From: an uncultured Gammaproteobacteria bacterium
GTDB taxonomy: Bacteria; Patescibacteriota; Patescibacteriia; UBA2196; CAYSSY01
Direction of reading: 5' to 3'
NCBI GenBank assembly: GCA_964434055.1
Contig: CAYSSY010000003.1
Coordinates: 10,372-74,371, forward strand
DNA length: 64,000 bases
The notes under the pieces: generated by a model
Database searches by the model: none
The model's input: only the letters and a program-made list of their open reading frames with translations
Told to the model about the DNA's origin: nothing
Part shown: positions 4,428-49,128 of the stretch, one piece after another
Layout: each line of letters opens with the position of its first letter
Position numbering within the stretch: position 1 is the first letter of the stretch
Program-made: the position numbers and the translations under genes

Positions 4428-4428
4428 A

Positions 4429-5286
4429 TTATTTTTTAACTTGACCAAAGAAAAATAACGCATAATTCTTGGTGAAAAAGAAATTATCAGCTTGTTTAAC
4501 CGGCATTAGCTGAAAAAAAACTGTCATGTTTTTTTCCAATACCTCTTTCTCAACAAAAGTATGAATGATGTTGCTACGAAACCACCACATGGCGTCAAAA
4601 GCTTTTTGTGAAAGCTCACCTTTTTTATAATATAAATACAAATGATCAAACAATTTTTTCATATATAAACGACATTGCTTTCTATTGTAAATCTTAGGTT
4701 TTAGCTCACTGTTAATATAGAGTGATAAGAACATGTCAAACCAATGAGATACACCACGATCGAATTTTTGGGTTATTTTTTTGACCGAATCTGGCGCAAT
4801 CTTTGAATTAAAAACAAATTCCCTAATAATCAAATAACCATCTTTTTTTAAAAGCCGATGATTTTCTTTAAAAAAACGGCTGTGATCTTTAACACTGATA
4901 TTATTAGTGACGCCGTCGCCAATGACAACATCAAAAGAATTATCAGCTAAACCAGATTCCAACCAATCGCCAATAATTATTTTTTCTTTTTTATGACCAG
5001 CATATCTCATGAGTTTATTGCATTTCACAATCATATCAGTGCTAACGTCAAGAGTAACTAAACTACCACCTAATTCTAAAACCAAATCCCTAATTTCCGG
5101 CGTTGCCCCTAGAACTAAAGCTTTGAAATGCTTTTTATTTTTAACAGCTTTCATTATAAGCTCTCGGTAAACAGCGATAATACCTTTCGCGGCTGATGGT
5201 GCACCTGGATAATTTGAGCGCTCCATAGTTCTTTGATCAGCAATTTTATCCCGCCATTCTTTTTGTTTTCTTTTAGTTATTGACAT
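4429..5286 (-). CDS. Paralog 2 of the same family
   Basis: It carries ALVLGATPEIRDLV, VTLDVSTDM, FDVVIGDGVTNNI and LLKKDGYLIIRE. The ATG is at 5286. Confidence 0.6.
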   Translation of the reverse strand: MSITKRKQKEWRDKIADQRTMERSNYPGAPSAAKGIIAVYRELIMKAVKNKKHFKALVLGATPEIRDLVLELGGSLVTLDVSTDMIVKCNKLMRYAGHKKEKIIIGDWLESGLADNSFDVVIGDGVTNNISVKDHSRFFKENHRLLKKDGYLIIREFVFNSKIAPDSVKKITQKFDRGVSHWFDMFLSLYINSELKPKIYNRKQCRLYMKKLFDHLYLYYKKGELSQKAFDAMWWFRSNIIHTFVEKEVLEKNMTVFFQLMPVKQADNFFFTKNYALFFFGQVKK

Positions 5287-5289
5287 AAA

Positions 5290-6132
5290 TTATTTCTTTT
5301 TAGCTAAATAAAAACGAGAAAGTACTTGTTCACCCGGAAACTCGTCCAAAATTTTAAAGTATTTTTCAAAAGATGATAAATAAGTTTCTTTTTTAAAAAT
5401 TACTGCCTGTTTTTTACTATTCAGATAGATCTTGAGGCCAGCTAATTCCTTCTCGGTAATTCTGTTTTGTTTGTACCAATTATCAAGCAGAGTCAGGTGC
5501 TTCTTTAAATTATCAGAATAATCCTGATAATATATTTTTTCATCTTTTGCCCGCCACGTGCTCAAAAGAAGTAGCCAGCGTAAATCATTAACATTGATAT
5601 TTTTTTGGTGATCATAATGACTAATAATTTCAGCGAAACTTTTAAATTGAAAGGTTTTATCAAAATAGCCAGTTTGCTCAAAAAAATAGCCAGTATTTTT
5701 TAACCAATGATTAATATTTAGAAATAATTTTGGCAAGTCTACTCTGGACACCATGTTAACTGCCCAATCTGATAAAACTAAATCAAAATGATTTTGAGGA
5801 AGAGAAGCTTTTAACCAGTCGGCATTAATCAAAACTTCTTGGGCATAATTTTGTTTCATAAACCGGCGCATGGCAAGCTGCATGTTATGGTTGATGTCAA
5901 TACTGGTTAAATGCCAACCTCGGGCTAAACACAAATCACGTAATTCCGGAGTCGAACCCAACACCAAAGTTTTTATGTTTTTCTTTTTTATAAGCTGACT
6001 TAAATACTTTCGATAAATTTTTATCGAATATGGTGAAACACGCCCGGGCGGCAAAGTCACTCGCCAGTTTTTGACTAAGCTGGGAATAGAATTATCTGGA
6101 AAATATTGGCTTAAATTTTTTTTAAGCGTCAT
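5290..6132 (-). CDS. Paralog 3 of the same family
   Basis: It carries WRVTLPPGRVSP, TLVLGSTPELRDLC, TSIDINHNM, FDLVLSDWAVNMV and LKNTGYFF. The ATG start overlaps the paralog 4 stop by 11 nt. Confidence 0.6.
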   Translation of the reverse strand: MTLKKNLSQYFPDNSIPSLVKNWRVTLPPGRVSPYSIKIYRKYLSQLIKKKNIKTLVLGSTPELRDLCLARGWHLTSIDINHNMQLAMRRFMKQNYAQEVLINADWLKASLPQNHFDLVLSDWAVNMVSRVDLPKLFLNINHWLKNTGYFFEQTGYFDKTFQFKSFAEIISHYDHQKNINVNDLRWLLLLSTWRAKDEKIYYQDYSDNLKKHLTLLDNWYKQNRITEKELAGLKIYLNSKKQAVIFKKETYLSSFEKYFKILDEFPGEQVLSRFYLAKKK

Positions 6133-6976
6133 ATTTTTTCTTTAATAAATAAGCTGGCATCTGCATAGCACAAAAATGATAATCCTGACATTGCTCTAGT
6201 GGGGATATTTCAAAATCTTTGCTTAATAAATCTTCTAAATGATCTTTAAATAATAACATCATGTATTTGTGAGCATTACTATGCGCATCTTGATACCAAT
6301 TAAAAAAATCTTTTATTTCATATTTTTTGTTAATTTTCAAAAGCTCCTGGTAAACAGCATATGAATCAACTATAGTCGGCGATCTCAGACAAGGATTTAT
6401 ATAACTGGAATATTTCAAATAATTAAAAAGTTCTATGTCAGATAATTGACCCTCTCGACGGGCGGCAAAATAATTTCCAACCTGTTCTGGAGTAATCATT
6501 TTGTTGCTAGTAACCGCTACAACCTCTCGGGTTAAAAAATAACCACCAGGACTCAATATCTTACTAATTTTATTAAGTAATTTTATAAGTTCATCCAAAT
6601 TTAAAATTTGATTTAAAGAAGCATCGCCAAGAACCAAATCAAATTCACCTTCTTTAAATTTAGTGGTCAGCCAATTAGAAACCAGGTAGTGTTCGTTTTT
6701 CTCTGTTTGGTGCATTAACTTCTCCATTGCCAAAATCATGCCTTCATTCAAATCACAAACCGTAACTTCATAGCCGTGACTGGCCAGCAGATCACGAAAC
6801 TCGGGCGTGGAGCCGAGAGTTAAGGCTTTAGGATTTGCTTTTTTAGCCTTGATTGTTTTAATAACTTTCTCCCAAATTTTAAGCTGAGTTGGACATGGTC
6901 GTGAAGGCGGCTTAACTAGATCAACCCATGACCGAGCCATAATTTCCCAGGTTTCTTTGTTTTGTGCCAGAGACAT
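6122..6976 (-). CDS. Paralog 4 of the same family
   Basis: It carries WVDLVKPPSRPCP, ALTLGSTPEFRDLL, VTVCDLNEGM, FDLVLGDASLNQI and LSPGGYFLTRE. Confidence 0.6.
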   Translation of the reverse strand: MSLAQNKETWEIMARSWVDLVKPPSRPCPTQLKIWEKVIKTIKAKKANPKALTLGSTPEFRDLLASHGYEVTVCDLNEGMILAMEKLMHQTEKNEHYLVSNWLTTKFKEGEFDLVLGDASLNQILNLDELIKLLNKISKILSPGGYFLTREVVAVTSNKMITPEQVGNYFAARREGQLSDIELFNYLKYSSYINPCLRSPTIVDSYAVYQELLKINKKYEIKDFFNWYQDAHSNAHKYMMLLFKDHLEDLLSKDFEISPLEQCQDYHFCAMQMPAYLLKKKYDA

Positions 6977-6978
6977 AT

Positions 6979-7821
6979 TTATTGCTTCCTTTTTAGTTTA
7001 TAAATCCGAGACAGCTGACGGTAAACTGGGTGACAGGTGTCAGGCAGATACTTTTCAATTACAAAATATTTTTTAAGTAATTTTTCATCTTCTTGGCCAC
7101 TGTAGCCATAGGCCCAATATTTATGGCGTGGAATTATTTTTAAGGTTGCATCATTTAATTTTTTAATTTTTTGATCATTTTTCGCTAAAAATTTTAGTCT
7201 GGCAAAAAGCCGGTCGGCACTGACCTGTTTATTTTGACTGCCGCAACAAAAAACACCAAATGACCACAGATCACTGACCACTTTATCAGTCAATTTCTTT
7301 TGACTCATTTTCACAATCACCTTGTCTAAATCTAACAAGGCTTTTTTGTTAAAATAACTGAAAAAACGAGTAATAAAATAACCATCTTTTTTTAGTAAAT
7401 CATTGATATGCTGATACATTTGAAGTAAATCCCGACGGGGCACATTGCCAGTGACAAAATCACCAAAAACCAAATCGTAATAATTTTGCCTTAAGGGCGC
7501 GGTCGTCCAGCTTGCTTTAATCCAGGTTTCATTGTCTGTTTTTCTTTTCATTAAATTCGTCATGGCAATAATCATTTCCATATTAATGTCACACACCGTC
7601 ACTTTAAGCTGATGATATTTAGCAAACAAGTCTCGCAACTCTGGCGTCGAACCCAACAACAGCACTTGAACATTGTTTTTATTTTTAATTGCTTCGAACA
7701 TTAGTTTTTTAAAAGCCATAATATTGCCGAGAGAGGGCCGGGAGGGTGGATAAATTTTTAGCCAGGTTGCGGCAAAATTCCGCCAGGCTGCAGTATATTT
7801 TTTTTGAAGTGATTGAGGCAT
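6979..7821 (-). CDS. Paralog 5 of the same family
   Basis: It carries WLKIYPPSRPS, VLLLGSTPELRDLF, VTVCDINMEM, YDLVFGDFVTGNV and LLKKDGYFITR. Confidence 0.6.
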   Translation of the reverse strand: MPQSLQKKYTAAWRNFAATWLKIYPPSRPSLGNIMAFKKLMFEAIKNKNNVQVLLLGSTPELRDLFAKYHQLKVTVCDINMEMIIAMTNLMKRKTDNETWIKASWTTAPLRQNYYDLVFGDFVTGNVPRRDLLQMYQHINDLLKKDGYFITRFFSYFNKKALLDLDKVIVKMSQKKLTDKVVSDLWSFGVFCCGSQNKQVSADRLFARLKFLAKNDQKIKKLNDATLKIIPRHKYWAYGYSGQEDEKLLKKYFVIEKYLPDTCHPVYRQLSRIYKLKRKQ

Positions 7822-7822
7822 A

Positions 7823-8629
7823 CTATTTTTTCTTTAAAAAATAAACAGGGCAAAGATATGACAAGCGATGATCAGAAGCGTGTTTTTTGGCTGTGATCTG
7901 GAAATATTTTTTTAGCTTTTTTTCTTCATTAATTTCTGCGTCCTGAAACCAAGTTTTTTCAAAAGGATAATCTGCAATAAATCTTTGATACAAAATTTTA
8001 TATTTTCTTCTGTTAGAAAGTGCTTGCTTACGGATCATCTGCTTAATAATTTGTCTAACACTTCTAAAGTCAAATTGTTTTAGTTTTTTATTCCAAACCA
8101 CTGACTGCAAGGCAAATTGAAACTCGCAGATATTAGGATCTTTTTGATCGGCATAATGTGTGACAACAGCGCTTGCTTTTAAATTATGATCAAGCATTAT
8201 GTGGCGAGTTATAAATAAGCCATCTTTTTTTAATAATCTTTTTATCTCTAAGTAAAACTGGCTGCGCAAATTGAGGGGGATATTGGAAATAACAAAATCA
8301 CCCAAGATATAATCAAAATAATTTGTCTTTAAAGGTGTTTCAAGCCAGTTGGCAATAACCCATGTTTCAGCAGCGCTTTTATAAGAGTATTTCATTAGTC
8401 GCGAGGTTGAGACAAGCATCTCTAAATTCATGTCACAGGCAACCACTTCACATTTTAACTCATGTCCGAGATCACGATATCTAGGTGTGGCGCCCAAAAC
8501 CAAAACTCTAGCGCCGGTTCTCATAACTTTCTTCATTAAAGCAACTTCACCAAAGGATGGTATTATTGGTTCGCGGTAAATATGCCATTGATCAGCAATC
8601 TTTTTAAACCAGTTAATGTTTGAATTCAT
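7823..8629 (-). CDS. Paralog 6 of the same family
   Basis: It carries VLVLGATPRYRDLG, VVACDMNLEM, FDYILGDFVISNI and LLKKDGLFITR. Confidence 0.6.
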   Translation of the reverse strand: MNSNINWFKKIADQWHIYREPIIPSFGEVALMKKVMRTGARVLVLGATPRYRDLGHELKCEVVACDMNLEMLVSTSRLMKYSYKSAAETWVIANWLETPLKTNYFDYILGDFVISNIPLNLRSQFYLEIKRLLKKDGLFITRHIMLDHNLKASAVVTHYADQKDPNICEFQFALQSVVWNKKLKQFDFRSVRQIIKQMIRKQALSNRRKYKILYQRFIADYPFEKTWFQDAEINEEKKLKKYFQITAKKHASDHRLSYLCPVYFLKKK

Positions 8630-8639
8630 AAATGGTTGA

Positions 8640-8712
8640 GTTTTAGTAAGTGGTAGCCAGTAGTAAGTAACAGGGAGTAAGTAGTCGGTAAGCTATAGTC
8701 GTAAGTCATAAG
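8640..8712. repeat. Short tandem-ish array of (A)GTAAGT motifs in the paralog 7 / paralog 6 spacer
   Basis: The motif GTAAG(T) occurs at 8646, 8663, 8677, 8688 and 8701, spaced 11-17 nt apart, within the 91-nt gap between the paralog 7 stop and the paralog 6 start. Confidence 0.4.
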
Positions 8713-8720
8713 TCAGCCGA

Positions 8721-9596
8721 TTATTTGACTTGCATCAGCCAAATCGGAAAACACTGATCATTGCATCTAAAATAGCAATCAGCTAAAACTTTTTTATTCA
8801 GAATCTTAAAATATCTTTTTATTTGCTTTTCGACCTCAACTTCCCAAGAGACGCTCCAGGTTTTTTTCATCGGTTGCCACATCTGCCACATATCGTTAAG
8901 CAAAACGTTTAGTTTTTTATCGGGATGAACAAAATGATCTTTTCTAAAAAATTTGTTTAAACCTTTTATAATTAAAGACAAATCTATTAATTTCTTCCTG
9001 TAATTAAAAGTTAAGTTATGAAGATAAACTAAAAGTTCTATAGACATACAGGAACGATCGCGATAAAAGTCACTGGGGACGTCTTTAAATTTATTAAGAA
9101 CAATCTCATAATCTTCAAATGGAAAATCTTGTGGCACCACCTCAATCTTGCTGATAAAATAACCGCTGTTTTTTAATACACGGACAATCTCTTTTAAAAA
9201 TCTATCTTGCAAATTCCCAGGGACATTTGACAAAACAACATCTCCCATGGCTGCGTCAAAATAATGATCCTGAAAAGGCAAGTCGCACCAATTGCCGCGC
9301 ACCACGATCTCATTTGGATTCTTGTGCTTCATAATCGAAGTCATGGCGAGAATCATTTCCAAATTTAAATCAATAAAAGCAACTTCAAATTTTTCTTCAA
9401 AGGCTAAATCCCTAAGTTCTGGCGTGGAACCAAAAATTAAAACTCGCGGTTTTCTTTTTAAACCACGTTTAGCTGTTCTTAAGTGCCGGCGATATTCGGC
9501 AATGGCACTTTGAGAAGGCCGGCCCGGCGGCCGATAATATTTCTGCCACCTCTGAGCATAATCTTTCCATGGCTCGGCAAAAGTTTCTTTAGACAT
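8721..9596 (-). CDS. Paralog 7 of the same family; first gene of the apparent operon
   Basis: The protein begins MSKETFAEPWKDYAQRWQKYYRPPGRPS, followed by VLIFGSTPELRDLA, VAFIDLNLEM, FDAAMGDVVLSNV and LKNSGYFIS. The ORF-track start at 9632 is a TTG codon, whereas the ATG at 9596 gives an N-terminus that aligns with paralog 1. Confidence 0.55.
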   Translation of the reverse strand: MSKETFAEPWKDYAQRWQKYYRPPGRPSQSAIAEYRRHLRTAKRGLKRKPRVLIFGSTPELRDLAFEEKFEVAFIDLNLEMILAMTSIMKHKNPNEIVVRGNWCDLPFQDHYFDAAMGDVVLSNVPGNLQDRFLKEIVRVLKNSGYFISKIEVVPQDFPFEDYEIVLNKFKDVPSDFYRDRSCMSIELLVYLHNLTFNYRKKLIDLSLIIKGLNKFFRKDHFVHPDKKLNVLLNDMWQMWQPMKKTWSVSWEVEVEKQIKRYFKILNKKVLADCYFRCNDQCFPIWLMQVK

Positions 9597-9654
9597 ATAT
9601 ATAAATCTACCGCGAAATACCTTAAAAATCAATAATAAAAATTTATTTTGTCAT

Positions 9655-29544: not shown

Positions 29545-29979
29545 ATGTTACAAAAAACTTGGCTCGAACTAAAATCGCCACTACCTGAAAAATATTTTGA
29601 AAGGTTTGCTAGTTTGTACACTCGATTAACTGGCCAACCTCTCCACATACCTGTTGAGCAAATTACGGCTGCAGCTGTTTGGTCAACTTTGCTGCAAATT
29701 AACCACCACCTGTTGGAAAAAAGCAGCGGACGAATAGTTATGGAACAAAGTTATTTTAAGGTTCCGACATACTTCAGACCGGCTGAATTATTGAGTGCCT
29801 TAAAGAACTTATTTGAGGCCTACAATAAAAATATCGATAAGACATTTGTCTTTAATTGGCTTCATATAAGAGACTGTGCGATCTGTGCGACCAGTTTCAC
29901 TTTATTTGTCTCCGGTTTTTTAAAAACAATAGTTAACAAAAAATCTTTTGAAAGAAATATCATCGAACTTATGAATTAA
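29545..29979 (+). CDS. hypothetical protein
   Basis: It is 144 aa. The ORF is supported only by its length and codon usage. Confidence 0.4.
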   Translation: MLQKTWLELKSPLPEKYFERFASLYTRLTGQPLHIPVEQITAAAVWSTLLQINHHLLEKSSGRIVMEQSYFKVPTYFRPAELLSALKNLFEAYNKNIDKTFVFNWLHIRDCAICATSFTLFVSGFLKTIVNKKSFERNIIELMN

Positions 29980-30005
29980 CTCTGGGTACACTACACCTGG
30001 GGTTT

Positions 30006-30737
30006 TTATTTTTTCTGGGCAATGGTTAACAAAGTCCAAGCCTGATCAGAACTAGCTTCTACTCCTTTCTGAGTAAACTTGTTAACTAAAACCGAAAAAT
30101 CACTTTTATAAAGTAATACCTCCAGTTCCTCAGGGCTAAAAAAATGACAATAGCGATAAATTATTTTTTGCCGATGTTTCCAAGGAAAATAAATTTCTTT
30201 AAATTGAAAAATTAAACTTAAAGGCATGTGTCGCAACCGAAAAAATAAATTAAAACGACTATGCCAAAATTTTTTCTGTCTAAGGTTCCAGTTAGTCATT
30301 AGAATGTACCCGCCGGGCTTCAGAACCCGTGCGACTTCCTTAAAAATCTTAAGCTGTAAGTCTTGTGATGGTATGTGATGCATAACAGCAATCATAAATA
30401 CAACATTAAACGAGCTATCTGTGAAAGTCGCTAAATTACAAATGTCATCTTTAATAAAATTAACGTTTGTTAAAGCACTAAATTTTTCTTGAGCCTTAGT
30501 AATTAAAGTGCTACAATTATCAACGCCCGTATATTTTATTTTTTTACTTTTTAAAACCTCAAATAAACGACCATTACCACAACCTAAATCAAGAACACTG
30601 TCACCATCTTTAACATATTTATTTAGTATTGTAAATTCAGCCCAAGGGTACTGTCGGGTATTATTAAACTCATCGGCTAAAAAATTATAATCTGCTGTTG
30701 TTTTAGATAGCAATTTGTTAATTAATTTTTTATTCAT
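30006..30737 (-). CDS. Trm9/ALKBH8-type tRNA (carboxymethyluridine34-5-O)-methyltransferase-like class I SAM MTase
   Basis: It carries the N-terminal Trm9 signature YNFLADEFNNTRQYPW (compare yeast VYNEIAPHFSQTRYKPW). Motif I is VLDLGCGNG. It also has FMIAVMHHIPS (compare ISIAVVHHWST) and LKPGGYILMTNWNLRQ (compare GGQALIYCWALEQ). It is divergent from and abuts the Elp3 gene. Confidence 0.7.
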   Translation of the reverse strand: MNKKLINKLLSKTTADYNFLADEFNNTRQYPWAEFTILNKYVKDGDSVLDLGCGNGRLFEVLKSKKIKYTGVDNCSTLITKAQEKFSALTNVNFIKDDICNLATFTDSSFNVVFMIAVMHHIPSQDLQLKIFKEVARVLKPGGYILMTNWNLRQKKFWHSRFNLFFRLRHMPLSLIFQFKEIYFPWKHRQKIIYRYCHFFSPEELEVLLYKSDFSVLVNKFTQKGVEASSDQAWTLLTIAQKK

Positions 30738-30738
30738 A

Positions 30739-32463
30739 ATGAAAATATTAAGTCGCGAAATTAAAAATATTATTCTAGCTACACCTCAAAATGAAGCAAA
30801 TTTATTATCTTTAAAAAGAAAGTTTGCTAAAAATTCCGGTCAACTACCATTGAATTCAGAATTGCTTTCAGTATACCGCAACCTTTTAAAAAATAACAAG
30901 ATTAAAACTGATAAAAACCTGGAGAAATTGCTGAAGAAAAAAAACATTCGAACTCTTTCAGGTGTAGCACCAATTTCTGTTTTGGTAAAAAATTTTCCCT
31001 GCCCAGGCAACTGTCTTTACTGCCCGACAGAAAAAGCCATGCCTAAAAGCTATCTCTCTAATGAACCAGCGGTGATGCGCGCTGTTTTATGTGACTTTCA
31101 CCCATTTAAACAGGTAGCACTGCGCCTCAAAGCCTTGCAACAAAATGGTCACTCCACTGATAAATTAGAACTGATTGTCATCGGCGGTACTTGGAATGCT
31201 CTGCCTGAAAAATATCGCTTATGGTTTATGTATAACTGCTTTGCCGCAGCCAACGAACCACAAATAACAATTAACAAGAAGCAAATAATTATTAGCAAAA
31301 ACCTTAAATTAAAAACACTTAACAAAGTGACTTGGAAAGATTTATATCGTGAACAGAAAAAAAACGAGATGGCACAAAACAGAATCATTGGCTTGACCTT
31401 GGAAACACGACCTGATTATATTACATGTTCAAATGCGCTTGAAATGCGGCAACTGGGCTGCACGCGAGTGGAACTTGGGGTACAGCATCTTAATGATAAA
31501 ATTTTAAAATTAAATCGACGCGGCCATGGTGTTGCTGAAACCATAAAAGCAACAAATATTCTACGTTCATTGGGTTTTAAAATAACTTATCATCTAATGC
31601 TTAATTTACCTGGATCAAATCCAGCTCATGATCTTGCGATGTTTAAAAAACTTTTTAAAGACGCCTGTTTTCAGCCAGATCAGATTAAAATTTATCCGTG
31701 TGTCGTTACTAAAAATTCTGATCTTTATAATCTTTGGCAAAAAGGCCAATACCAGCCTTATAATACTGAACAATTAACAAATCTTTTAATTAAAATTAAA
31801 AAAATTGTGCCTGAATATGTCAGAATAATTAGGGTTATTAGGGATATTCCAGAAACTTCAATCATCGCTGGTAATAAAATAACTAATCTAAGAGAAACTG
31901 TCTTACAAAATATGCTTTTAAATAATAAACCGTGTCGCTGCATTAGATGCCGAGAAGTAGGACATCAACAGAAAACTCAAATGCCCAATGTCAAATGTAA
32001 AAAAATAAAATTATGCACTAATAAATATGAAGCCGGATCCGGAACAGAATATTTTTTAAATTATGAATCAGTTGATAAAAAAGTACTCTATGCCTTTCTG
32101 CGACTACACCTGCCAACTTCTAAAAATCAGTTACTGGTTACTGATTGTCGGTTACCAGCTGCTGGTTACTGGCTACTGACCACCCCGATAATTCGCGAAC
32201 TCCACACTTACGGCGAACTGGTACCGATTGATCAGCAAGACAAGACAGCCAGTCAACACCGAGGCATGGGTAAAAAACTAATTTTGGAAGCAGAAAAAAT
32301 TGCTTGTCAAAATAATTTTAGAGAAATTGCTGTCATTGCCGGGATCGGTGTCAGAAACTATTATCGCAAACTTGGCTATACTTTATTAAAAGACACTTAT
32401 TTGGTGAAAAAATTGCGGAAAAAAAATAATGGTGGTATAGTTGAAATGAAAAAAAATATATGA
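30739..32463 (+). CDS. elp3: Elongator Elp3-like tRNA uridine(34) carboxymethyl synthase (radical SAM + GNAT)
   Basis: The Cys cluster FPCPGNCLYCP is followed by SYLSNEPAVMRA...LQQNGHSTDKLELIVIGGTWNA, which aligns closely with eukaryotic/archaeal Elp3 (GNICVYCP...SYTGYEPTSMRA...GHSIDKVEYVLMGGTF). A C-terminal GNAT/KAT domain is present (HRGMGKKLILEAE). The ORF-track start at 30715 is a TTG codon. The first ATG is at 30739, 1 nt from the Trm9-like ATG on the other strand. Confidence 0.85.
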   Translation: MKILSREIKNIILATPQNEANLLSLKRKFAKNSGQLPLNSELLSVYRNLLKNNKIKTDKNLEKLLKKKNIRTLSGVAPISVLVKNFPCPGNCLYCPTEKAMPKSYLSNEPAVMRAVLCDFHPFKQVALRLKALQQNGHSTDKLELIVIGGTWNALPEKYRLWFMYNCFAAANEPQITINKKQIIISKNLKLKTLNKVTWKDLYREQKKNEMAQNRIIGLTLETRPDYITCSNALEMRQLGCTRVELGVQHLNDKILKLNRRGHGVAETIKATNILRSLGFKITYHLMLNLPGSNPAHDLAMFKKLFKDACFQPDQIKIYPCVVTKNSDLYNLWQKGQYQPYNTEQLTNLLIKIKKIVPEYVRIIRVIRDIPETSIIAGNKITNLRETVLQNMLLNNKPCRCIRCREVGHQQKTQMPNVKCKKIKLCTNKYEAGSGTEYFLNYESVDKKVLYAFLRLHLPTSKNQLLVTDCRLPAAGYWLLTTPIIRELHTYGELVPIDQQDKTASQHRGMGKKLILEAEKIACQNNFREIAVIAGIGVRNYYRKLGYTLLKDTYLVKKLRKKNNGGIVEMKKNI

Positions 32464-32855
32464 TTCTCCCATCTAAATCTATAATTGCTTCTGGTCCAGT
32501 GATTATCGAAAATAATAAAGTCCTACTAAATAAAGACGCTGATGATTATTTCTGGAAATTTTGTGGTGGAGAGGTAGAAGATTTTTCTATTTCATTGGAG
32601 GAAAATGCCAAACGTGAGGCGCGCGAAGAAATGGGTATTGAGATTGAAATTATTAAACCCTTAAAAACAATTATACTTAATCAGCTGGAAAAAGAGCGTG
32701 TGGTGATTTTGATTCATTATTTAGCAAATAGAATCGGTGAGATAAAACCCGATGGCGATACCACCGAATGGAATTGGTTTGATATTCACAATTTACCAGA
32801 AGACGTTGCACCTAATGTCAAAGAAATAATAAACGACTATTTAAAAATTAAATAA
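32460..32855 (+). CDS. NUDIX hydrolase
   Basis: It carries the Nudix box GGEVEDFSISLEENAKREAREEMGIE. It overlaps the Elp3 stop by 4 nt, which suggests an operon. Confidence 0.8.
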   Translation: MILPSKSIIASGPVIIENNKVLLNKDADDYFWKFCGGEVEDFSISLEENAKREAREEMGIEIEIIKPLKTIILNQLEKERVVILIHYLANRIGEIKPDGDTTEWNWFDIHNLPEDVAPNVKEIINDYLKIK

Positions 32856-32977: not shown

Positions 32978-34234
32978 ATGCCTTTATACGAAAATATAAA
33001 AATTGAAGATCCAGAAATCTACCAGGCACTCATTAACGAACTGGAACGTCAACAGACGGGTCTGGAAATGATTCCTTCAGAAAATTTTGTCTCCCAAGCT
33101 ATCTTGGAAGCCTTGGGCTCTATTGCCACCAATAAATATTCTGAAGGTTATCCTCATAAACGCTATTATGGCGGACAAGAATACATTGACGTCATTGAAG
33201 AACTGGCTATTGAACGCGCTAAACAACTATTTAAAGCTGAACATGTTAATGTCCAGCCTCTTTCTGGTGCACCGGCCAACTTGGCTGTTTATACAGCTTT
33301 ATTAGAACCAGGTGACACAGTCCTGGGTATGGATTTATCACATGGCGGACATTTAACCCATGGGCACCCAGTAACACTCCCGGCAAGAATTTACAATTTT
33401 GTTCGTTATAAAACTGATATGCAAACCGGCTTAATTGATTATGATAATTTACGAGAAATGGCTTTAAAAAATAGACCAAAAATTATTTTAGCCGGCTATT
33501 CAGCCTATTCTCGAATTATTGATTGGCAAAAAATAAAGACTATTGCTCAAGAAGTTAATGCATTAACTATGGCTGATATCGCCCATATTGCTGGCCTGAT
33601 CGCTGGTAATGCCATGGAAAATCCTGTACCAATTTTTGACGTCATAACCACTACTACTCATAAAACCCTGCGCGGACCAAGGGGTGGCATGATTATGTGT
33701 AAAAAAAGCCTGGGGGAAAAAATCGATAAAGCTGTCTTTCCACATCTCCAGGGAGGACCACATGAAAATAATATTGCTGCCAAAGCCATTTGTTTTAAAG
33801 AAGCTTTGGAGCCGAATTTTCAAGACTATGCGCAACAAATCATAAAAAATGCCAAATCTTTAGAATTAATTTTAAAAGAGCACGGATTTAAAATTTGTTT
33901 TGGTCAAACAGACAATCACTTGCTTCTAATTGACCTGACTAACAAACAAATAACTGGTCATGAGGCTCAAGACTTGTTTGATGAAGTTGGTATCACGGTT
34001 AATAAAAACATGATTCCAGATGACCCAAGAAAACCTACCGATCCCTCGGGTATTAGATTAGGGACGCCAGCATTAACTACCCGTGGTTTTATAGAAGATG
34101 ATATGATAATTATTGGCAATCTATTAGCGGAAATAATTGAGAATAAAAATGACAACTCAGTAAAAGATAAAGTCCGCCATGGTGTTAAAGAACTGACACA
34201 AAAACATCCTCTTTATCAAAATTTAATAAAATAA
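32978..34234 (+). CDS. glyA: serine hydroxymethyltransferase
   Basis: It carries MIPSENFVS, YSEGYPHKRYYGGQEYID and the PLP-Lys region TTTTHKTLRGPRGG. Confidence 0.95.
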   Translation: MPLYENIKIEDPEIYQALINELERQQTGLEMIPSENFVSQAILEALGSIATNKYSEGYPHKRYYGGQEYIDVIEELAIERAKQLFKAEHVNVQPLSGAPANLAVYTALLEPGDTVLGMDLSHGGHLTHGHPVTLPARIYNFVRYKTDMQTGLIDYDNLREMALKNRPKIILAGYSAYSRIIDWQKIKTIAQEVNALTMADIAHIAGLIAGNAMENPVPIFDVITTTTHKTLRGPRGGMIMCKKSLGEKIDKAVFPHLQGGPHENNIAAKAICFKEALEPNFQDYAQQIIKNAKSLELILKEHGFKICFGQTDNHLLLIDLTNKQITGHEAQDLFDEVGITVNKNMIPDDPRKPTDPSGIRLGTPALTTRGFIEDDMIIIGNLLAEIIENKNDNSVKDKVRHGVKELTQKHPLYQNLIK

Positions 34235-34257
34235 AAAAGGCCTTAAAAAACAGGCCT
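34232..34257. terminator. Palindromic hairpin AGGCCT-N8-AGGCCT with flanking A-run, shared 3' end of glyA and the convergent small ORF
   Basis: The sequence AAAAAAGGCCTTAAAAAACAGGCCT forms the hairpin. On the minus strand the hairpin is followed by TTTTTT. Confidence 0.45.
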
Positions 34258-34525
34258 ACTGACAATTGTGTGTCACAGAAAAAATCCTTGACTGTTTAAA
34301 TATATGTGCCAATCCTGGTGTCTTTGGGTATAAATCATAAGAAATTTGACTTTCATTATCCAAAATTAATTCCTGAATAATCGCTCTTTTTAAACCATCA
34401 TGTTCCAAAGTTTTGTGTAAAGCATTGGGAGCAATATTGGCAATATGATGGTAAACGACCAGTCCATTTGGTTTTATAAATAAAACCTCATAGAAACTGT
34501 TTTCTTCTAATCGTCCTTCAATCAT
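34256..34525 (-). CDS. hypothetical small protein (downstream member of an overlapping two-gene cassette)
   Basis: It is 89 aa. Its ATG overlaps the stop of the upstream small ORF by 4 nt. No motif is recognised. Confidence 0.4.
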   Translation of the reverse strand: MIEGRLEENSFYEVLFIKPNGLVVYHHIANIAPNALHKTLEHDGLKRAIIQELILDNESQISYDLYPKTPGLAHIFKQSRIFSVTHNCQ

Positions 34526-34776
34526 AATATATGTACTCCATTGACTTCAAATAAAAAAGCAGTGTCGGTCCGGTTGGTTGGTGGATAGTCAATTGCTTTA
34601 GGTTCTTTCTCTCTTATGACCTCAATGAATCTTATTGAATTTAAATTCAATATCTCTTCCACTTCTGCTAGAGGAACTAGCCTGATACATTTTTGATCAC
34701 CATTAGAAAGTCGCATCATGGCCACAAACTTGGTTTCCGAAGTAAAAGGTTTAAGTTGATCTTTAAAATTTGACAT
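34522..34776 (-). CDS. hypothetical small protein (upstream member of the two-gene cassette)
   Basis: It is 84 aa. It lies on the opposite strand between glyA and folD. Confidence 0.4.
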   Translation of the reverse strand: MSNFKDQLKPFTSETKFVAMMRLSNGDQKCIRLVPLAEVEEILNLNSIRFIEVIREKEPKAIDYPPTNRTDTAFLFEVNGVHIL

Positions 34777-34833
34777 TGAACCCTCCTAAAAAAGTTAAAT
34801 TAAAAATAGCAAAATTCTTCTAATAATAAGCCT

Positions 34834-35676
34834 ATGATTAAAAAAAGTCAAGTCATCGACGGTCAAAAAATTGCCATTAAAGAACTGGCAGCATTAAAGA
34901 GCCAAATCCAAAAAAAACGAATTAAACCAGGACTGGCAGTGATTTTAGTCGGCCGTGATCCAGCCTCACAGCTTTATATAAAGCTCAAAGAAAATGCGGC
35001 CAAAAAAGTTGGCATTAATTTTTCCAAATACTTGCTGCCAGAAATGACAACTGAAAAAAAAATAATTAATTTAATAAAAAGTTTGAATAAGCAATCGGCT
35101 GTACATGGTATTATAGTTCAGCTGCCTCTTCCAAAACACTTGAATCCTGATAAAATTATTAACACAATAGACTACAGAAAAGATGCAGACGGCTTCCATA
35201 AAAAAAATTTGACCTCGTTAAAAAGTAAAACTTACTTTATTAAACCAGTTATGCTTGAAGTTGTATCAAACTTACTAAAATGGACAAAACGGAATTTTAA
35301 TAATCAACTGGCATGTTTAGTAGCTAACTCTAATAAATTCTTCGAACCATTTCAGTACTTCTTGCCATCAGCCTTTGGGCTCAGAATAACCACGGCCAAG
35401 GTTGGCCACCGCGATTTAAAAAATAAAGCCAGGCGTGCTGATGTTTTAATCGTAGCTCTGGGTAAACCGCATTTTATCAAAGCTGATTATGTTAAAAAAA
35501 ACGCTATAGTGATTGATATTGGTATTACTAAAAAGGGCACAAAAACCCTGGGGGATGTTGATTTTAATAAAGTTAAAAAAAAGGCTGGCTTTATTACGCC
35601 AGTGCCTGGAGGGGTTGGCCCTTTGACAGTCGCTTACCTTTTAAAAAACGTCTTTTTACTCGCCCATAAAAAATAG
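34834..35676 (+). CDS. folD: bifunctional methylenetetrahydrofolate dehydrogenase/cyclohydrolase
   Basis: The region GLAVILVGRDPASQLYIKLKENAAKKVGINF...GIIVQLPLPKHL is the FolD signature. It lies next to glyA, consistent with one-carbon metabolism. Confidence 0.9.
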   Translation: MIKKSQVIDGQKIAIKELAALKSQIQKKRIKPGLAVILVGRDPASQLYIKLKENAAKKVGINFSKYLLPEMTTEKKIINLIKSLNKQSAVHGIIVQLPLPKHLNPDKIINTIDYRKDADGFHKKNLTSLKSKTYFIKPVMLEVVSNLLKWTKRNFNNQLACLVANSNKFFEPFQYFLPSAFGLRITTAKVGHRDLKNKARRADVLIVALGKPHFIKADYVKKNAIVIDIGITKKGTKTLGDVDFNKVKKKAGFITPVPGGVGPLTVAYLLKNVFLLAHKK

Positions 35677-44424: not shown

Positions 44425-47400
44425 TTATTTTTTTTCTACTTTTCGCCAAGCTTGTGCCTCAATAGTTGGGTGAACCTTGCCTGGGCCTTTCTTAATAGTG
44501 TCATATATCTCTTCCGGAGTATAACCACCATAAACATAGGCATTCACTAGTTTGTACCAATAGCGCGGTGAAACATAGATTGGCCTGTTATTATTCAATT
44601 TTATTAAGGCATCCCAAAGTTCTTCGGCAGCTTCTTGTTCAGTAGTCAAACTACCCAAACGTGATTTGCCGTAGATCATTGTCTTATCTTTGGAAATTTT
44701 TACTGGTTTGGGATAAAGTGGACTATAGCCATTTCTAACCTCAATGCCATCCAAATAAGTATCACTATCAGTATCACTATTTTCTGGATCGGTGCCATAC
44801 CATTCTTCTTGTTGATCACTTAAACCGTCATTATCACTATCGGTAATGAGAGCAGCCCCACTAAGTGTTGGGCTGGTCGACTGATCTTGAAATGTCTCTG
44901 TTGGTTTAGTTACAACTGGTTGAACGACATTAGGAGTTACAACGGGGGTTTCACCAAAAACTTGAGTATTATCATTGTTGGCATCTAAAAACAAAACATA
45001 TTTACCATTCACCCATTGCGTCTTACTTAAAGCAGAATCAACACCTTTGGATAAATCAGACCAGATGAATGCATTACTAATATTGGTATTAATATAAGAC
45101 GCAGGAGCCGGTTCCAAGACAGTTGAAGATGAATCACCAATCATTTTAACTTTAACATAGTAATCATTTGTTTGTTTTACGACCGTACCAACCAATTCAA
45201 ATGTTTTAACAGTGCCGGCTGGAATAACCAGATAACTATCATTAAAATAAACACTGCTATTATTAGTGAGTGGATATTCAATATCAGCAGCAACATCCTT
45301 TAACACCAGATTACTAATAACTATATTCTTCGCATCAAGAATACCAAACATCATCTTGTAAATACCAACATCACCTTTTGCATCTGCTGCTACAGTAAAA
45401 CGGTACAAACTTTGTGTACCATTATTTATGGTTGTCGTAAGTAGACTTTTTTTAGAAACAACCGGCTGTGTCTTAAATAAATAAACCTTATTGCTTTGGA
45501 AAGATCCTTCTTTGTTGGTCGGCGAATAAATCAAACCACTTGTTTTACCCACTGCTACCACATCAACAGCCGCCAGATTTAAGACAAGACCATTACCAGA
45601 AGAAGCCGGACAGTTTTCACCAATACAATTTGTATCACCTTTTAGTGCTAGGGTTTTAACGCTATTACTTGTTATTAATAAACCATTGGGAATTGTTAAA
45701 ATTACTTCACTGGTCGAGGTGGGCACTGCCTCACCCAATTTTGTCGCACCATCATAAAGTGTAATTTTATTAATAACTTTCAACAAATTACCACCATTAA
45801 GACCTTCTGTCTTAAATTTTAAACTTTTGACTTCAATGTTTTCAGATATAGCCTTTAAATCAAAATTACCAAAATTAGAATTTGTGCCACCAGCAGTATA
45901 CAGACCACTTGGTACAGTGGCAGCACTGGTGCTAACAACTAACTTGCCTGTATGACCAATAACAACTTTTGAACCCACTAAAGGATAACTGCCACTAACC
46001 TTGATTTGATTGTTTGAACTATTACCAAAAGCTAAAACAAAAGTATCATTGTCAATGCTTATTTGGTGACTGGTGTTATTTTCAGCGCTTGCCGAAATAT
46101 CAGCGGTTAATTTTAAGGTTTTAATAGTGCCTTTTGCAATTATTAAAGGATTATTAAAAACAAGGACTAGATCACTATAAAGACTATTATTAAATGTTCC
46201 TGATTCTGGTATGTTGAGAACGGTTTGAGTACTAACATCAGTTAAGATAATATTAGATAGATCTGCTTGAATACCCACCTTTGACAACGTATCAGTTAGC
46301 TCTACTTTGGTCACTTTAATATCCTCGCTGGAACTACCAGCATCAAATTTAATTGTAGCTAACAACTTATTTATCTCACCAGCTAGATAATGAATTTCTT
46401 TAGCGGTATCGGTCACGGATACATTCAAACTAGGAACATTTGTAGTACTGGGCAGTTGACAAGTGGCTAACTGGGCGCTATCAGTTAAACAGTCATATTT
46501 TTTATCTATGACACCGCCATTAGTATAGACAATATTTACCGGTGCTGTCACCACTGAGCTACGATTTAAATTGTTTGCCCACAGACCAACCTCAGTAATT
46601 GGATATTTATAATTACCATAAACCAAATAAACCTTATCGGGATCAGAACTATATTTTATTAGTGTCCCGTCAGGATAATTATTATTAATGGCTGTGCCTA
46701 TTAGATAATTAACAAAAAAACTATCAGGCACAGTAACCAAACGAGCACTCCAATTACTCCCATAAAGCTTTGTTAGTTGTTCTGTTGATATTTGATGCAG
46801 TTGCTGCTTAGAACCTACGGCATAGACCGTTGCTGATTGAGGAGTTTTGGCTAAACTAGTACCTGGTCTTAAGACAATATTACCACTTAAGGCATAACTT
46901 TCAGCAACAACAGCACTGACTGTTTTTATTTTAGTCGCATCAACTTGCCAAGAATTCATGACATCCTGCTTGTAATTACTACCCAGAGTATAAGGGAAGA
47001 CATAACGTTTATTATTACTCGCTAAATAATAAACATAGTTTAGGTTATTTTCAATGATAAAAAGATCACCTACTTGCAAAACCTCAACATCTGAACTTTT
47101 TCTTATATAGATTAAAGTATCATAACCCTCTCCATTATCATTCTTAGCTTTGATAGCTAAAGTATGTGTGCCAACTGATAAATTAGTAAAGGTATAGCTA
47201 TGTGTCCCAGCCAGGTACATTGTTCCTTTATAGGTTCCGCTACTGTCAGGAATTTCCGTACTATTGTCAAAAAAGTGTAACGTGGCATTCTGATCTAATT
47301 TAAAGTCAACTTTATAATAATTATTAGTGCCAGAATTTTCCCATAATGGATTAGTTATATCTAATTGCGGCTGATTACCCAGACACTTTTCATACTCATG

Positions 47401-49128
47401 ATTATGATCATCAAAATATGACCAAACACGGCGCTGGGTACCATTAAGATTAGTTTTCCAATCAACATCGTTTTGACCTGGAACATACCACTGAGACCAA
47501 GCACCATTAAACCACTGGATACGATATTTTAGAATTTCCGGATGTTTGGAGATATCAAGCCCTAGAGCTTGAAAGTTATAACCACCAAGTGGCTTCTCAT
47601 TAATAATTGTAGTTCGGCCGGTGGTGCAAGATGGAGATATGACTTCAACATTAACTGCTGTTGCAAAAGTATTATTATTTTCGTTTGATTCACTAACATT
47701 ATCTAGTGGATCAACTGTTATTATTATATTATTGTTACCATATACAAAATAATTATCGCTCTTACTAGTTACATCGACGTTACCAACCACATAAACATGA
47801 CTGATATAATTATTAGGCTCAAAATAATCAAAGTAGAATTGCGAATTAAAAATTTCCTTGTTTAAAGTTGTATTTCTGACAGTTAATAAGAAACTTTGAT
47901 TGGGTTTGACCTGTCCAATATTTGTCAAATCAAATTCAAGTTGGATGTCCCAAGGTTCAATATTGGTTTGTCTTAAATCTGTATATTTGAAATTCTTGAC
48001 TGTTAAATCAGCTTTATAATATTGGCCACCATCAGTAGTAGTGGTAAAGTTATAGACTGAACTTTCAGAATAATTGTTCTCACTTGCGGTACAGATAATC
48101 TTATAATAATATTTTGTACTTGGTAATAAGCCATTCAAATTAGCTGAATATAGATAGTAACCTGTCTCGCCACTTAGCGAACGATTCGTATATAACAAAG
48201 ATGTACCATTACTCAAGTCACTATTCTTACTATATACTACGGAACAATTATATTGACCATTGGCAAACCAGGCTAATGAAGCTGATTCAAAACCAATACT
48301 AATTGAAGTGTCCTTAATCAGTGGTTTTGGCGCACCAATTGTTAATGTTTTGGTCAAAATATTATTATTTTCATTCGATTCAATAACATTATTATCACTG
48401 TCAATCCTAAGTGTGTAAATTAAATCTTGCTGAATTAACGTATCTCGATCGTGAGCTGGTTGTGTTCTAAATTCATAACTTTCGCCCGGTTTTAAATTTA
48501 AAATATTAGACCTCAAACCACTGGTACTATTCTTTTCCATAATAGTAAAATAAAAAGGACCAGTATCTACAGTGCCATTATTTTTAAAAGTAGCAACCAT
48601 CTCTAATATATCATATTGCAACCAAATATCGTTGCTAGGGTGGGTTAAGTTTCTTATTTCTAATTTAATTGGAATTAAATCAGGTTTTGTTCGATTGATA
48701 ACAACTAATTCTTTTGTAATGTTATTATTAGATGTATTAATTTCACCGGCAACATTTTTGATAGTAAGTGTGATCGAATAAGTTCCGGGTTCAGTAAAGT
48801 TATAGTTGGTGGTATAAGTGGTGAAATTGCCGGCATTGATGCCAAAACCATCATTCACATCAAAAATTTCAGTAGCAACCAAATCATTGTTTAAACTGAT
48901 TTCCACCTGAATTGAAAAAATCCCCGAAAAAGAAGTTGTACCAATATTTTGAATTGAAGGGACTAATAAAACTGTATTGTCATTATTGCTGTCAGGGTCA
49001 CTTAATCCAAAACCTGAAAAGATCAGATCTGGAGAAATGTTTATTTCACTAGCACTAATAGATAACGGACTAAAGCCCAATAATATAATAGCAGCAATTA
49101 AGATAAAATATATTTTATTTTTTTTCAT
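44425..49128 (-). CDS. Giant (1567 aa) secreted surface protein with multiple Ig-like/CARDB/fibronectin-III-like domains and C-terminal thrombospondin-type-3-like Ca-binding repeats
   Basis: It has a signal peptide. The mid-region is Asn/Thr/Ser-rich and beta-rich. Near the C-terminus are DxDxDG repeats (TDSDNDGLSDQQEEWYGTDPENSDTDSDTYLDG), followed by a ~70-aa conserved tail. Confidence 0.65.
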   Translation of the reverse strand: MKKNKIYFILIAAIILLGFSPLSISASEINISPDLIFSGFGLSDPDSNNDNTVLLVPSIQNIGTTSFSGIFSIQVEISLNNDLVATEIFDVNDGFGINAGNFTTYTTNYNFTEPGTYSITLTIKNVAGEINTSNNNITKELVVINRTKPDLIPIKLEIRNLTHPSNDIWLQYDILEMVATFKNNGTVDTGPFYFTIMEKNSTSGLRSNILNLKPGESYEFRTQPAHDRDTLIQQDLIYTLRIDSDNNVIESNENNNILTKTLTIGAPKPLIKDTSISIGFESASLAWFANGQYNCSVVYSKNSDLSNGTSLLYTNRSLSGETGYYLYSANLNGLLPSTKYYYKIICTASENNYSESSVYNFTTTTDGGQYYKADLTVKNFKYTDLRQTNIEPWDIQLEFDLTNIGQVKPNQSFLLTVRNTTLNKEIFNSQFYFDYFEPNNYISHVYVVGNVDVTSKSDNYFVYGNNNIIITVDPLDNVSESNENNNTFATAVNVEVISPSCTTGRTTIINEKPLGGYNFQALGLDISKHPEILKYRIQWFNGAWSQWYVPGQNDVDWKTNLNGTQRRVWSYFDDHNHEYEKCLGNQPQLDITNPLWENSGTNNYYKVDFKLDQNATLHFFDNSTEIPDSSGTYKGTMYLAGTHSYTFTNLSVGTHTLAIKAKNDNGEGYDTLIYIRKSSDVEVLQVGDLFIIENNLNYVYYLASNNKRYVFPYTLGSNYKQDVMNSWQVDATKIKTVSAVVAESYALSGNIVLRPGTSLAKTPQSATVYAVGSKQQLHQISTEQLTKLYGSNWSARLVTVPDSFFVNYLIGTAINNNYPDGTLIKYSSDPDKVYLVYGNYKYPITEVGLWANNLNRSSVVTAPVNIVYTNGGVIDKKYDCLTDSAQLATCQLPSTTNVPSLNVSVTDTAKEIHYLAGEINKLLATIKFDAGSSSEDIKVTKVELTDTLSKVGIQADLSNIILTDVSTQTVLNIPESGTFNNSLYSDLVLVFNNPLIIAKGTIKTLKLTADISASAENNTSHQISIDNDTFVLAFGNSSNNQIKVSGSYPLVGSKVVIGHTGKLVVSTSAATVPSGLYTAGGTNSNFGNFDLKAISENIEVKSLKFKTEGLNGGNLLKVINKITLYDGATKLGEAVPTSTSEVILTIPNGLLITSNSVKTLALKGDTNCIGENCPASSGNGLVLNLAAVDVVAVGKTSGLIYSPTNKEGSFQSNKVYLFKTQPVVSKKSLLTTTINNGTQSLYRFTVAADAKGDVGIYKMMFGILDAKNIVISNLVLKDVAADIEYPLTNNSSVYFNDSYLVIPAGTVKTFELVGTVVKQTNDYYVKVKMIGDSSSTVLEPAPASYINTNISNAFIWSDLSKGVDSALSKTQWVNGKYVLFLDANNDNTQVFGETPVVTPNVVQPVVTKPTETFQDQSTSPTLSGAALITDSDNDGLSDQQEEWYGTDPENSDTDSDTYLDGIEVRNGYSPLYPKPVKISKDKTMIYGKSRLGSLTTEQEAAEELWDALIKLNNNRPIYVSPRYWYKLVNAYVYGGYTPEEIYDTIKKGPGKVHPTIEAQAWRKVEKK

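Follow-up and report, generated by a model that had tools for sequence, protein, structure and literature searches.

The group carried at C5 of the wobble uridine (U34) of tRNA is commonly treated as a domain-level trait, bacteria making 5-methylaminomethyl- or 5-carboxymethylaminomethyluridine, together (c)mnm5U, through MnmE/MnmG, and eukaryotes and some archaea making 5-methoxycarbonylmethyluridine (mcm5U) or 5-carbamoylmethyluridine (ncm5U) through Elp3 and Trm9. The Elp3 and Trm9 genes are clustered in Sulfolobus solfataricus (PMC2584109), and mcm5U has been demonstrated in Haloferax volcanii, in which Trm9 works with Trm112 and the Trm9-Trm112 complex is required for the modification (PMC6144793). 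Here we describe a bacterial locus in a 64-kb stretch of contig CAYSSY010000003.1 (hereafter the window), in which a gene for Elp3 stands head to head with a gene for a Trm9-like methyltransferase dependent on S-adenosylmethionine (SAM). We consider it highly probable that the two genes form a tRNA wobble-uridine module of the archaeal/eukaryotic type, whose product would be mcm5U made from 5-carboxymethyluridine (cm5U).

The data examined were the window and 10-20-kb loci of relatives, designated below by L numbers. The original prediction for this DNA had named Elp3, the methyltransferase, a NUDIX gene and the junction between the two divergent genes, and all four were found at the positions it gave. 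The features of the locus are the following.

30006..30737, minus strand: predicted Trm9-family class I SAM-dependent methyltransferase, 243 aa (from the open reading frame (ORF) listing, Pfam and a family profile)
30739..32463, plus strand: Elp3, 574 aa, with radical-SAM and KAT/GNAT domains (from TIGR01211, PDB alignments and motifs)
30735..30741: head-to-head junction CAT-A-ATG, with CAT at 30735-30737, A at 30738 and ATG at 30739-30741 (read from the sequence)
32460..32855, plus strand: NUDIX hydrolase, 131 aa, generic MutT-like (from Pfam NUDIX)
29978..30004: terminator-like G+C-rich hairpin, then a T-run, between the convergent ORF 29545-29979 (plus strand) and the methyltransferase stop (a consensus-level match only)

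Identity of the two divergent genes

The gene starting at 30739 encodes Elp3, as predicted. A search with the TIGR01211 profile, which had been proposed as a check, scored 547.8 bits (cut-off 350), placing residues 14-559 of the protein on model positions 9-522 of 522. The best PDB match was the Elp3 of Dehalococcoides mccartyi (5l7j; 1e-111, residues 67-557), followed by the Methanocaldococcus infernus protein (~1e-110) and by mammalian and yeast Elp3 (4e-93 to 7e-88). The radical-SAM triad C88-X3-C92-X2-C95 (CPGNCLYC, residues 88-95) aligned with the D. mccartyi cluster, and the Pfam models Radical_SAM and Radical_SAM_C both matched. The protein also has the zinc-Cys motif CRCIRC at 399-404; such a zinc-binding motif has been described for bacterial and archaeal Elp3 (PMC6367351), and it is missing from the L017 Elp3 and from the Elp3 sequences of DPANN archaea. 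The C-terminal GNAT domain that had been claimed for the protein is accepted because of the full-length Elp3 hidden Markov model (HMM), the PDB alignments, which extend over the KAT domains to residue 557, and the acetyl-CoA motif QHRGMG at 506-511 (Q/RxxGxG/A type); a match to a Pfam acetyltransferase model is the part that did not follow, none being obtained for the window Elp3 at E ≤ 0.01.

Within the first 30 codons of Elp3, the ATG at 30739 is the sole in-frame start codon, and we take it as the start because the N-terminus is co-linear with those of other Elp3 proteins of the Candidate Phyla Radiation (CPR), including the N-terminal 66 residues that are missing from the D. mccartyi crystal construct. 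The N-terminus of the methyltransferase aligns with all 37 homologues, so both start codons are credible. The description of bacterial Elp3 as only sporadic was an understatement. Reviews speak of its presence in "numerous bacteria", and the best 120 matches to the window protein were 52-65% identical to it, in addition to one identical copy; many were already named Elp3 by NCBI, and those with a named source came from Patescibacteria. A look-up for an NCBI record of the window Elp3 itself returned none. By analogy with characterized relatives, the window Elp3 is predicted to be a tRNA U34 5-carboxymethyl (cm5U) synthase.

The divergent gene had been said to carry Trm9/ALKBH8 signatures, and these are present in its product: FNNTRQYPW (residues 24-32), DLGCGNG (50-56), AVMHH (117-121), NWNLRQ (149-154) and RYCH (195-198), with motif I reading LDLGCGNG at 49-56. 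A profile of 38 family members searched against the whole PDB ranked the Yarrowia lipolytica Trm9 (5cm2_Z) first with 107.8 bits (4.3e-30), all remaining entries scoring 89 bits or less, and the alignment extended from TR..W near the N-terminus to PW...RYYH near the C-terminus. An HMM made from 51 bacterial Elp3-adjacent methyltransferases gave fungal Trm9 96.7 bits; when run against seven other methyltransferases encoded in the window, it gave five of them 18-37 bits and did not report two at E ≤ 10. In the reverse direction, the Trm9 sequence had a sole match among the window ORFs, that at 30006-30737 (6e-12). Thus the profile ranking, the discrimination from the seven window proteins and the active-site residues described below do not group the protein with unrelated small-molecule methyltransferases, and its sequence supports membership of the Trm9 family. 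Some distant members of the family are labelled TRM9 or ALKBH8 in JGI annotation, and the methyltransferase adjoining Elp3 in the DPANN locus L020 had Trm9 as its best PDB match (1e-15 vs 2e-9 for the next).

General resources were less specific. Pfam returned only the generic class I models Methyltransf_25/31/11, and none of the NCBIfam models scored above its cut-off. The AlphaFold2 (AF2) model of the protein has a Rossmann-type fold (predicted local distance difference test score, pLDDT, 94.6), and fold searches with this model did not discriminate between Trm9 and other methyltransferases. PDB entry 6f5z was considered as H. volcanii Trm9 and rejected, being the Hvo_0019 methyltransferase bound to Trm112. 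The seven other window methyltransferases are paralogous class I enzymes encoded in tandem at 3567-9632 on the minus strand (298, 285, 280, 284, 280, 268 and 303 aa); each gives a weak Methyltransf_11/25 match, and the Trm9 sequence matches none of them.

The active site of yeast Trm9 has been defined by mutagenesis and modelling (Letoquart 2015, PMC4678810), with R29, H116, W145, W168, R241, Y243 and N271 required, as well as H115 and Y18; the N271A variant retains ~4% activity, and N271 has been proposed to read the uracil ring (PMC4678810). The window protein has equivalents in Y17, R28, D73, H120, H121, W150, W186 and R195. It thus keeps seven of the nine residues and the family consensus eight, or 8/10 and 9/10 when the SAM-binding D72 is added (D73 in the window protein, invariant in the family). 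Across the 51 bacterial Elp3-adjacent proteins, the residue was kept at the position of Y18 in 50, R29 in 50, D72 in 51, H115 in 46, H116 in 49, W145 in 51, W168 in 46 and R241 in 47, and the N271 position held Asn in 42; the Y243 equivalent is a variable position (Tyr in 20/51). Based on the likeness to yeast Trm9, the protein is predicted to be a tRNA cm5U34 carboxyl-O-methyltransferase, converting cm5U to mcm5U.

Recurrence and start-codon architecture of the pair

All five methyltransferase homologues that were looked up (27-44% identical) adjoin a divergent Elp3 gene of 523-535 aa, with outer flanks that differ. A metagenome scan for relatives of the methyltransferase retrieved 80 loci, 62 of them informative in having at least 600 bp upstream. 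Among these, Elp3 was divergent within 400 bp in 46, lay 0.8-1.7 kb away in three and was not found in 13. Elp3 accompanied every methyltransferase at least 36% identical to that of the window (35/35), half of those at 30-36% (9/18) and five of the nine below 30%. Among the loci lacking Elp3, several encode the proteins most similar to fungal Trm9, and such loci may represent lineages without linkage of Trm9 and Elp3. When the search was centred on Elp3, the methyltransferase was present at 7/9 bacterial loci, a small sample because the peptide patterns chosen were not conserved ones. The pair is therefore conserved in other CPR genomes, a point that the original prediction had proposed to check. 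The nearest homologues of both proteins, where the source is named, belong to Patescibacteria (Kuenenbacteria, Falkowbacteria, Uhrbacteria and Pacebacteria), and from these names the window is taken to derive from a CPR bacterium. In three DPANN archaeal loci Elp3 is likewise divergent from a Trm9-like gene. Many divergent genomes, whose outer flanks differ, have the two genes paired, so the pairing is not due to chance, and it is this genomic linkage that points to functional coupling of the methyltransferase to Elp3.

The ATG codons of the two window genes are separated by a single nucleotide, as had been noted, and closely abutting starts are common among the relatives. In the 46 adjacent pairs, the start codons lay no more than 10 nt apart or overlapped in 33 (median gap 0), the commonest state being an overlap of 2 nt at the palindrome CATG (16 loci), with CATATG next (6 loci). 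With uniform ORF calling, the gap was ≤10 nt in 24/38 pairs compared to 2/49 other divergent pairs in the same loci, with medians of 0 and 183 nt, respectively (Fisher p ~1e-9, in a test that ignores relatedness). The tight loci represent 24 clusters at 60% methyltransferase identity, and two independent source annotations place the starts 3 nt and 2 nt apart.

Because there is no intergenic region, the promoter and 5' leader of each gene would have to lie within the coding sequence of its partner. This had been proposed for the promoters, and we judge it reasonable; the recurrence of abutting or overlapping starts strengthens it, as does the terminator-like hairpin at 29978-30004, owing to which the upstream plus-strand ORF would not read through into Elp3. 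A Shine-Dalgarno (SD)-like motif was found upstream of only 5/48 window genes (ORFs ≥110 aa), so a ribosome-binding site need not be fitted in, and upstream regions in the window are rich in A/T and frequently contain a TATAAT-like hexamer 10-25 nt ahead of the ATG. These features suggest that initiation in this genome does not depend on SD motifs and that leaders are short. A TAATAT that ends 8 nt before the methyltransferase ATG is compatible with a leaderless transcript. A promoter scan gave 17 promoter-like matches compared to 11.5 ± 4.1 in shuffled sequences, an excess that does not reach significance in such AT-rich DNA, and the placement of -10-like hexamers ahead of the two genes in 30 loci was confounded by codon constraints and relatedness. 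In view of these two results, expression from very short 5' leaders, or from none, is only inferred, from the scarcity of SD-like motifs, as what makes the junction workable. The head-to-head arrangement may also tie the expression of both enzymes together.

Several relatives depart from the simple pair. In L014 (2465-5799), one of the seven Elp3-centred loci with the methyltransferase, an IS200-type transposase gene and a hypothetical gene separate the two genes. The gene just downstream of the methyltransferase there encodes a PP-loop protein that is ThiI/MnmA-like and has an NFACT-R_2 RNA-binding domain; this gene may be linked to U34 thiolation. The L013 locus (Elp3 at 5920-7632) is syntenic with the window, having genes for phosphoglucomutase, a DUF8173 protein, Elp3, serine hydroxymethyltransferase (SHMT) and FolD, and is devoid of the methyltransferase and NUDIX genes, so the methyltransferase can be lost or relocated. 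In L104, a stand-alone asparagine-synthase C-terminal PP-loop protein (SGGVDS) is encoded at 4049-4981 on the plus strand, 19 nt upstream of Elp3 (5001-6809) and on the same strand. An enzyme of this type could amidate cm5U to ncm5U. As an Elp3 partner, it is a weak lead, a 59%-identical homologue in a second lineage (P0220, L106-L108) not being beside Elp3; homologues of the protein come mostly from DPANN archaea, some of them fused to diphthine-ammonia ligase. The Trm9-like genes divergent from Elp3 in DPANN loci (L018:3857-4522, L020:2417-3109 and L021:4558-5247) encode proteins with K or V at the R29 equivalent and C at the H116 equivalent, both of which are needed for the activity of the yeast enzyme.

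A proposed wobble-uridine pathway and its alternatives

We propose that Elp3 would use SAM, through radical chemistry, and acetyl-CoA to place a carboxymethyl group on C5 of U34, giving cm5U, and that the Trm9-family methyltransferase would then use SAM to esterify the carboxylate of cm5U, giving mcm5U. The latter could possibly be thiolated further to its 2-thio derivative (mcm5s2U) by an enzyme encoded elsewhere. All cis-elements of each gene would fall within the first codons of its partner, and the NUDIX gene would be co-transcribed here without being a conserved component. The chemistry of the first step is modelled on the D. mccartyi and M. infernus Elp3 and that of the second on yeast and H. 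volcanii Trm9, and the tRNA substrates are proposed on the same analogies. The strong conservation of the pair makes this two-step conversion the best reading of the locus. None of mnmE, mnmG, mnmA or the cmo genes was found in the 64-kb window.

Several observations weigh against this reading. We know of no report of mcm5U in bacteria. Eukaryotic and haloarchaeal Trm9 need Trm112, and a crude motif scan found no Trm112-like ORF in the window, nor did clustering of the loci ORFs reveal a small Zn-ribbon/Trm112-like gene recurring beside the pair. The window protein has C197 at the Y243 equivalent and T235 (codon 30035-30037) at the N271 equivalent, where it is the sole Thr among the 51 proteins. 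A single-sequence PDB search favoured plant phosphoethanolamine methyltransferases (1.7e-15) over Trm9, which ranked tenth (3.6e-9). The bacterial Elp3 loci L013 and L104 have no methyltransferase within 5-6 kb, and the sampled loci are phylogenetically related, so that the counts given above are not counts of independent events.

The two substitutions in the window protein are relevant to an alternative in which the methyltransferase does partner Elp3, with an end product that is not simply mcm5U or with an altered or reduced specificity of the T235/C197 variant; the substrate that it methylates might then be another Elp3-dependent intermediate or a side chain that has been processed further. 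The deviation of the DPANN neighbours at the R29 and H116 equivalents is in line with this idea, as are the ThiI/MnmA-like PP-loop gene beside the methyltransferase of one relative and the finding that cm5U does not accumulate in H. volcanii without Trm9, indicating alternative routes (PMC6144793). However, R28, H120/H121, W150, W186 and R195, which have been proposed to hold the carboxylate and the methyl group of SAM in place, are intact, and no activity other than carboxyl methylation of cm5U is known for the Trm9 family (PMC4678810, PMC6144793), which makes an altered product unlikely. That the methyltransferase is instead an unrelated housekeeping or small-molecule enzyme, kept beside Elp3 by inherited synteny with no functional link, would accord with the generic Pfam matches, the lack of an NCBIfam match above cut-off, the relatedness of the sampled lineages, and the single-sequence PDB and fold searches, which favour other methyltransferases. 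Yet the pair persists while its outer flanks change completely, it spans the 24 clusters at 60% identity and extends to DPANN archaea, and the profile ranking and active-site conservation point to Trm9; we therefore regard this explanation as very improbable. Even less credence is given to the view that bacterial Elp3 is mainly a protein acetyltransferase, or an acetyltransferase of another kind, and not a tRNA cm5U synthase. This view has its source in the historical annotation as histone acetyltransferase, a name that some PDB entries keep. The conserved pairing with a Trm9-family enzyme makes sense only for tRNA, and the bacterial and archaeal enzymes, whose hydrolysis of acetyl-CoA requires tRNA as the trigger, are considered true tRNA-modifying enzymes (PMC6367351).

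The remaining alternative concerns the NUDIX gene. Its product matches Pfam PF00293 with 53.1 bits (cut-off 21.1) and contains REAREEMGI, the strict pattern GX5EX7REUXEEXGU not being exactly matched. The overlap with the Elp3 stop that had been predicted is real, the ATG sharing 4 nt (ATGA) with the Elp3 TGA. This overlap suggests co-translation and would suit a functional third component, for example one that removes by-products of the Elp3 reaction, either CoA-derived or nucleotide. In L004/L005 and L103, too, the gene immediately following Elp3 is an orthologue; identity to the window Elp3 is 46% for the Elp3 of L004/L005 and 65% for that of L103. On the other side, most loci by far have no such gene beside the pair, and the sole further match lies nearby in L033. 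The protein has a MutT-like WKFCGGEVE context, and its likeness to characterized NUDIX families consists of sub-threshold MutT matches in NCBIfam and weak, generic PDB matches, none of which passes a cut-off. The earlier idea that it recycles 5'-deoxyadenosine is rejected: NUDIX enzymes act on diphosphates, and this molecule has none to cleave. A third functional component is thus quite improbable. Because its orthologues are confined to the window, L004/L005, L103 and the vicinity of Elp3 in L033, the NUDIX gene does not belong to the conserved unit and looks like a clade-limited accessory or passenger.

A broader proposal can be made only tentatively, and we hold it with low confidence: that many Patescibacteria (CPR) read split codon boxes with mcm5(s2)U34 and not with (c)mnm5U of the MnmE/MnmG type, using a Trm9 that acts without Trm112 and is encoded in an obligatorily coupled head-to-head unit with overlapping starts (CATG) and near-leaderless transcripts, and that this module has been exchanged with DPANN-like archaea.

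Neighbouring genes and comparison with known systems

The window has a low G+C content (29-40%) and is ordinary bacterial chromosome, encoding rpoB/rpoC, recA, ftsK, uvrC, RNase J, the single-stranded DNA-binding protein (SSB), ribosomal protein S6 and a class I (Trp/Tyr-type) tRNA synthetase. An identical sequence is also present on an 80.9-kb contig assembled from SRR27676563. Beside rpoC, a 1,567-aa ORF (44425-49128, minus strand) matches only CARDB and a purple-acid-phosphatase N-terminal domain, and is probably a large surface protein. Downstream of Elp3, SHMT is encoded, mostly with FolD, in the window (32978-35676) and in L004, L007, L013, L102 and L105. The products of SHMT and FolD make methylene-tetrahydrofolate, the one-carbon donor for the rival MnmE/MnmG pathway; the location of these genes near Elp3 is probably plain synteny. 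A DUF5652 small membrane protein is encoded downstream of Elp3 in two close relatives (L103:7257-7493 and L104:6787-7023) and is absent from the window. All-against-all clustering of the loci ORFs revealed no other conserved neighbours beyond lineage-level synteny, which included SHMT, FolD, a Mur ligase and a gene pair of ~190 aa and 86 aa.

A search of a literature library found no paper on Elp3 in the CPR and none on a bacterial Trm9. Elp3 in these bacteria is already named by NCBI annotation, and its Trm9-like partner, whose family profile matches ~2,700 clusters at 50% identity (E ≤ 1e-30), has no annotation more specific than class I methyltransferase. Neither this bacterial Trm9 partner nor the overlapping start-codon architecture appears to have been described. 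We file the locus as a new bacterial instance of a known two-enzyme pathway, with an unusual conserved head-to-head architecture. The conserved pair predicts mcm5U in a large uncultured part of the bacterial tree, and it would give a function to a family known only as "class I SAM-dependent methyltransferase". Should the enzyme prove to work without a partner, it would represent a Trm9 that is independent of Trm112 in nature. The conserved overlap of the two divergent starts also offers an unusually clean natural case of gene expression without intergenic DNA.

Compared to the eukaryotic system, in which Elp3 of Elongator is followed by Trm9-Trm112 or ALKBH8-TRMT112, the locus shares both catalytic folds and their order, and the methyltransferase family shares the Trm9 residues R29, D72, H115, H116, W145, W168 and R241. 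It differs in lacking Elp1, Elp2 and Elp4-6, as is established for bacteria and archaea, in having no Trm112 gene nearby, in its head-to-head gene order, and in the T and C of the window protein at the N271 and Y243 equivalents. In contrast to ALKBH8, the window methyltransferase is a stand-alone protein of ~240 aa without AlkB and RRM domains. The archaeal systems of S. solfataricus and H. volcanii (HVO_1032-Trm112) combine a stand-alone Elp3 with a Trm9 homologue, as here. The DPANN loci have the same divergent arrangement, but their gaps are ~30-750 nt by ORF coordinates, whereas the bacterial genes abut or overlap, and the bacterial proteins keep the R29 and H116 residues that the DPANN neighbours have replaced. 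The D. mccartyi Elp3 (5l7j) has the same CX3CX2C cluster spacing and Zn-Cys motif as the window Elp3, which differs from it in ~66 extra N-terminal residues, like archaeal Elp3, and in a loop insertion at ~170-200. Finally, MnmE/MnmG(/MnmC) and CmoA/CmoB/CmoM act on the same target, C5 of U34, and follow the same logic, a side chain being installed and then methylated, although unrelated enzymes and chemistry serve for the first step. CmoM likewise makes a methyl ester, converting uridine-5-oxyacetic acid (cmo5U) to its ester mcmo5U.

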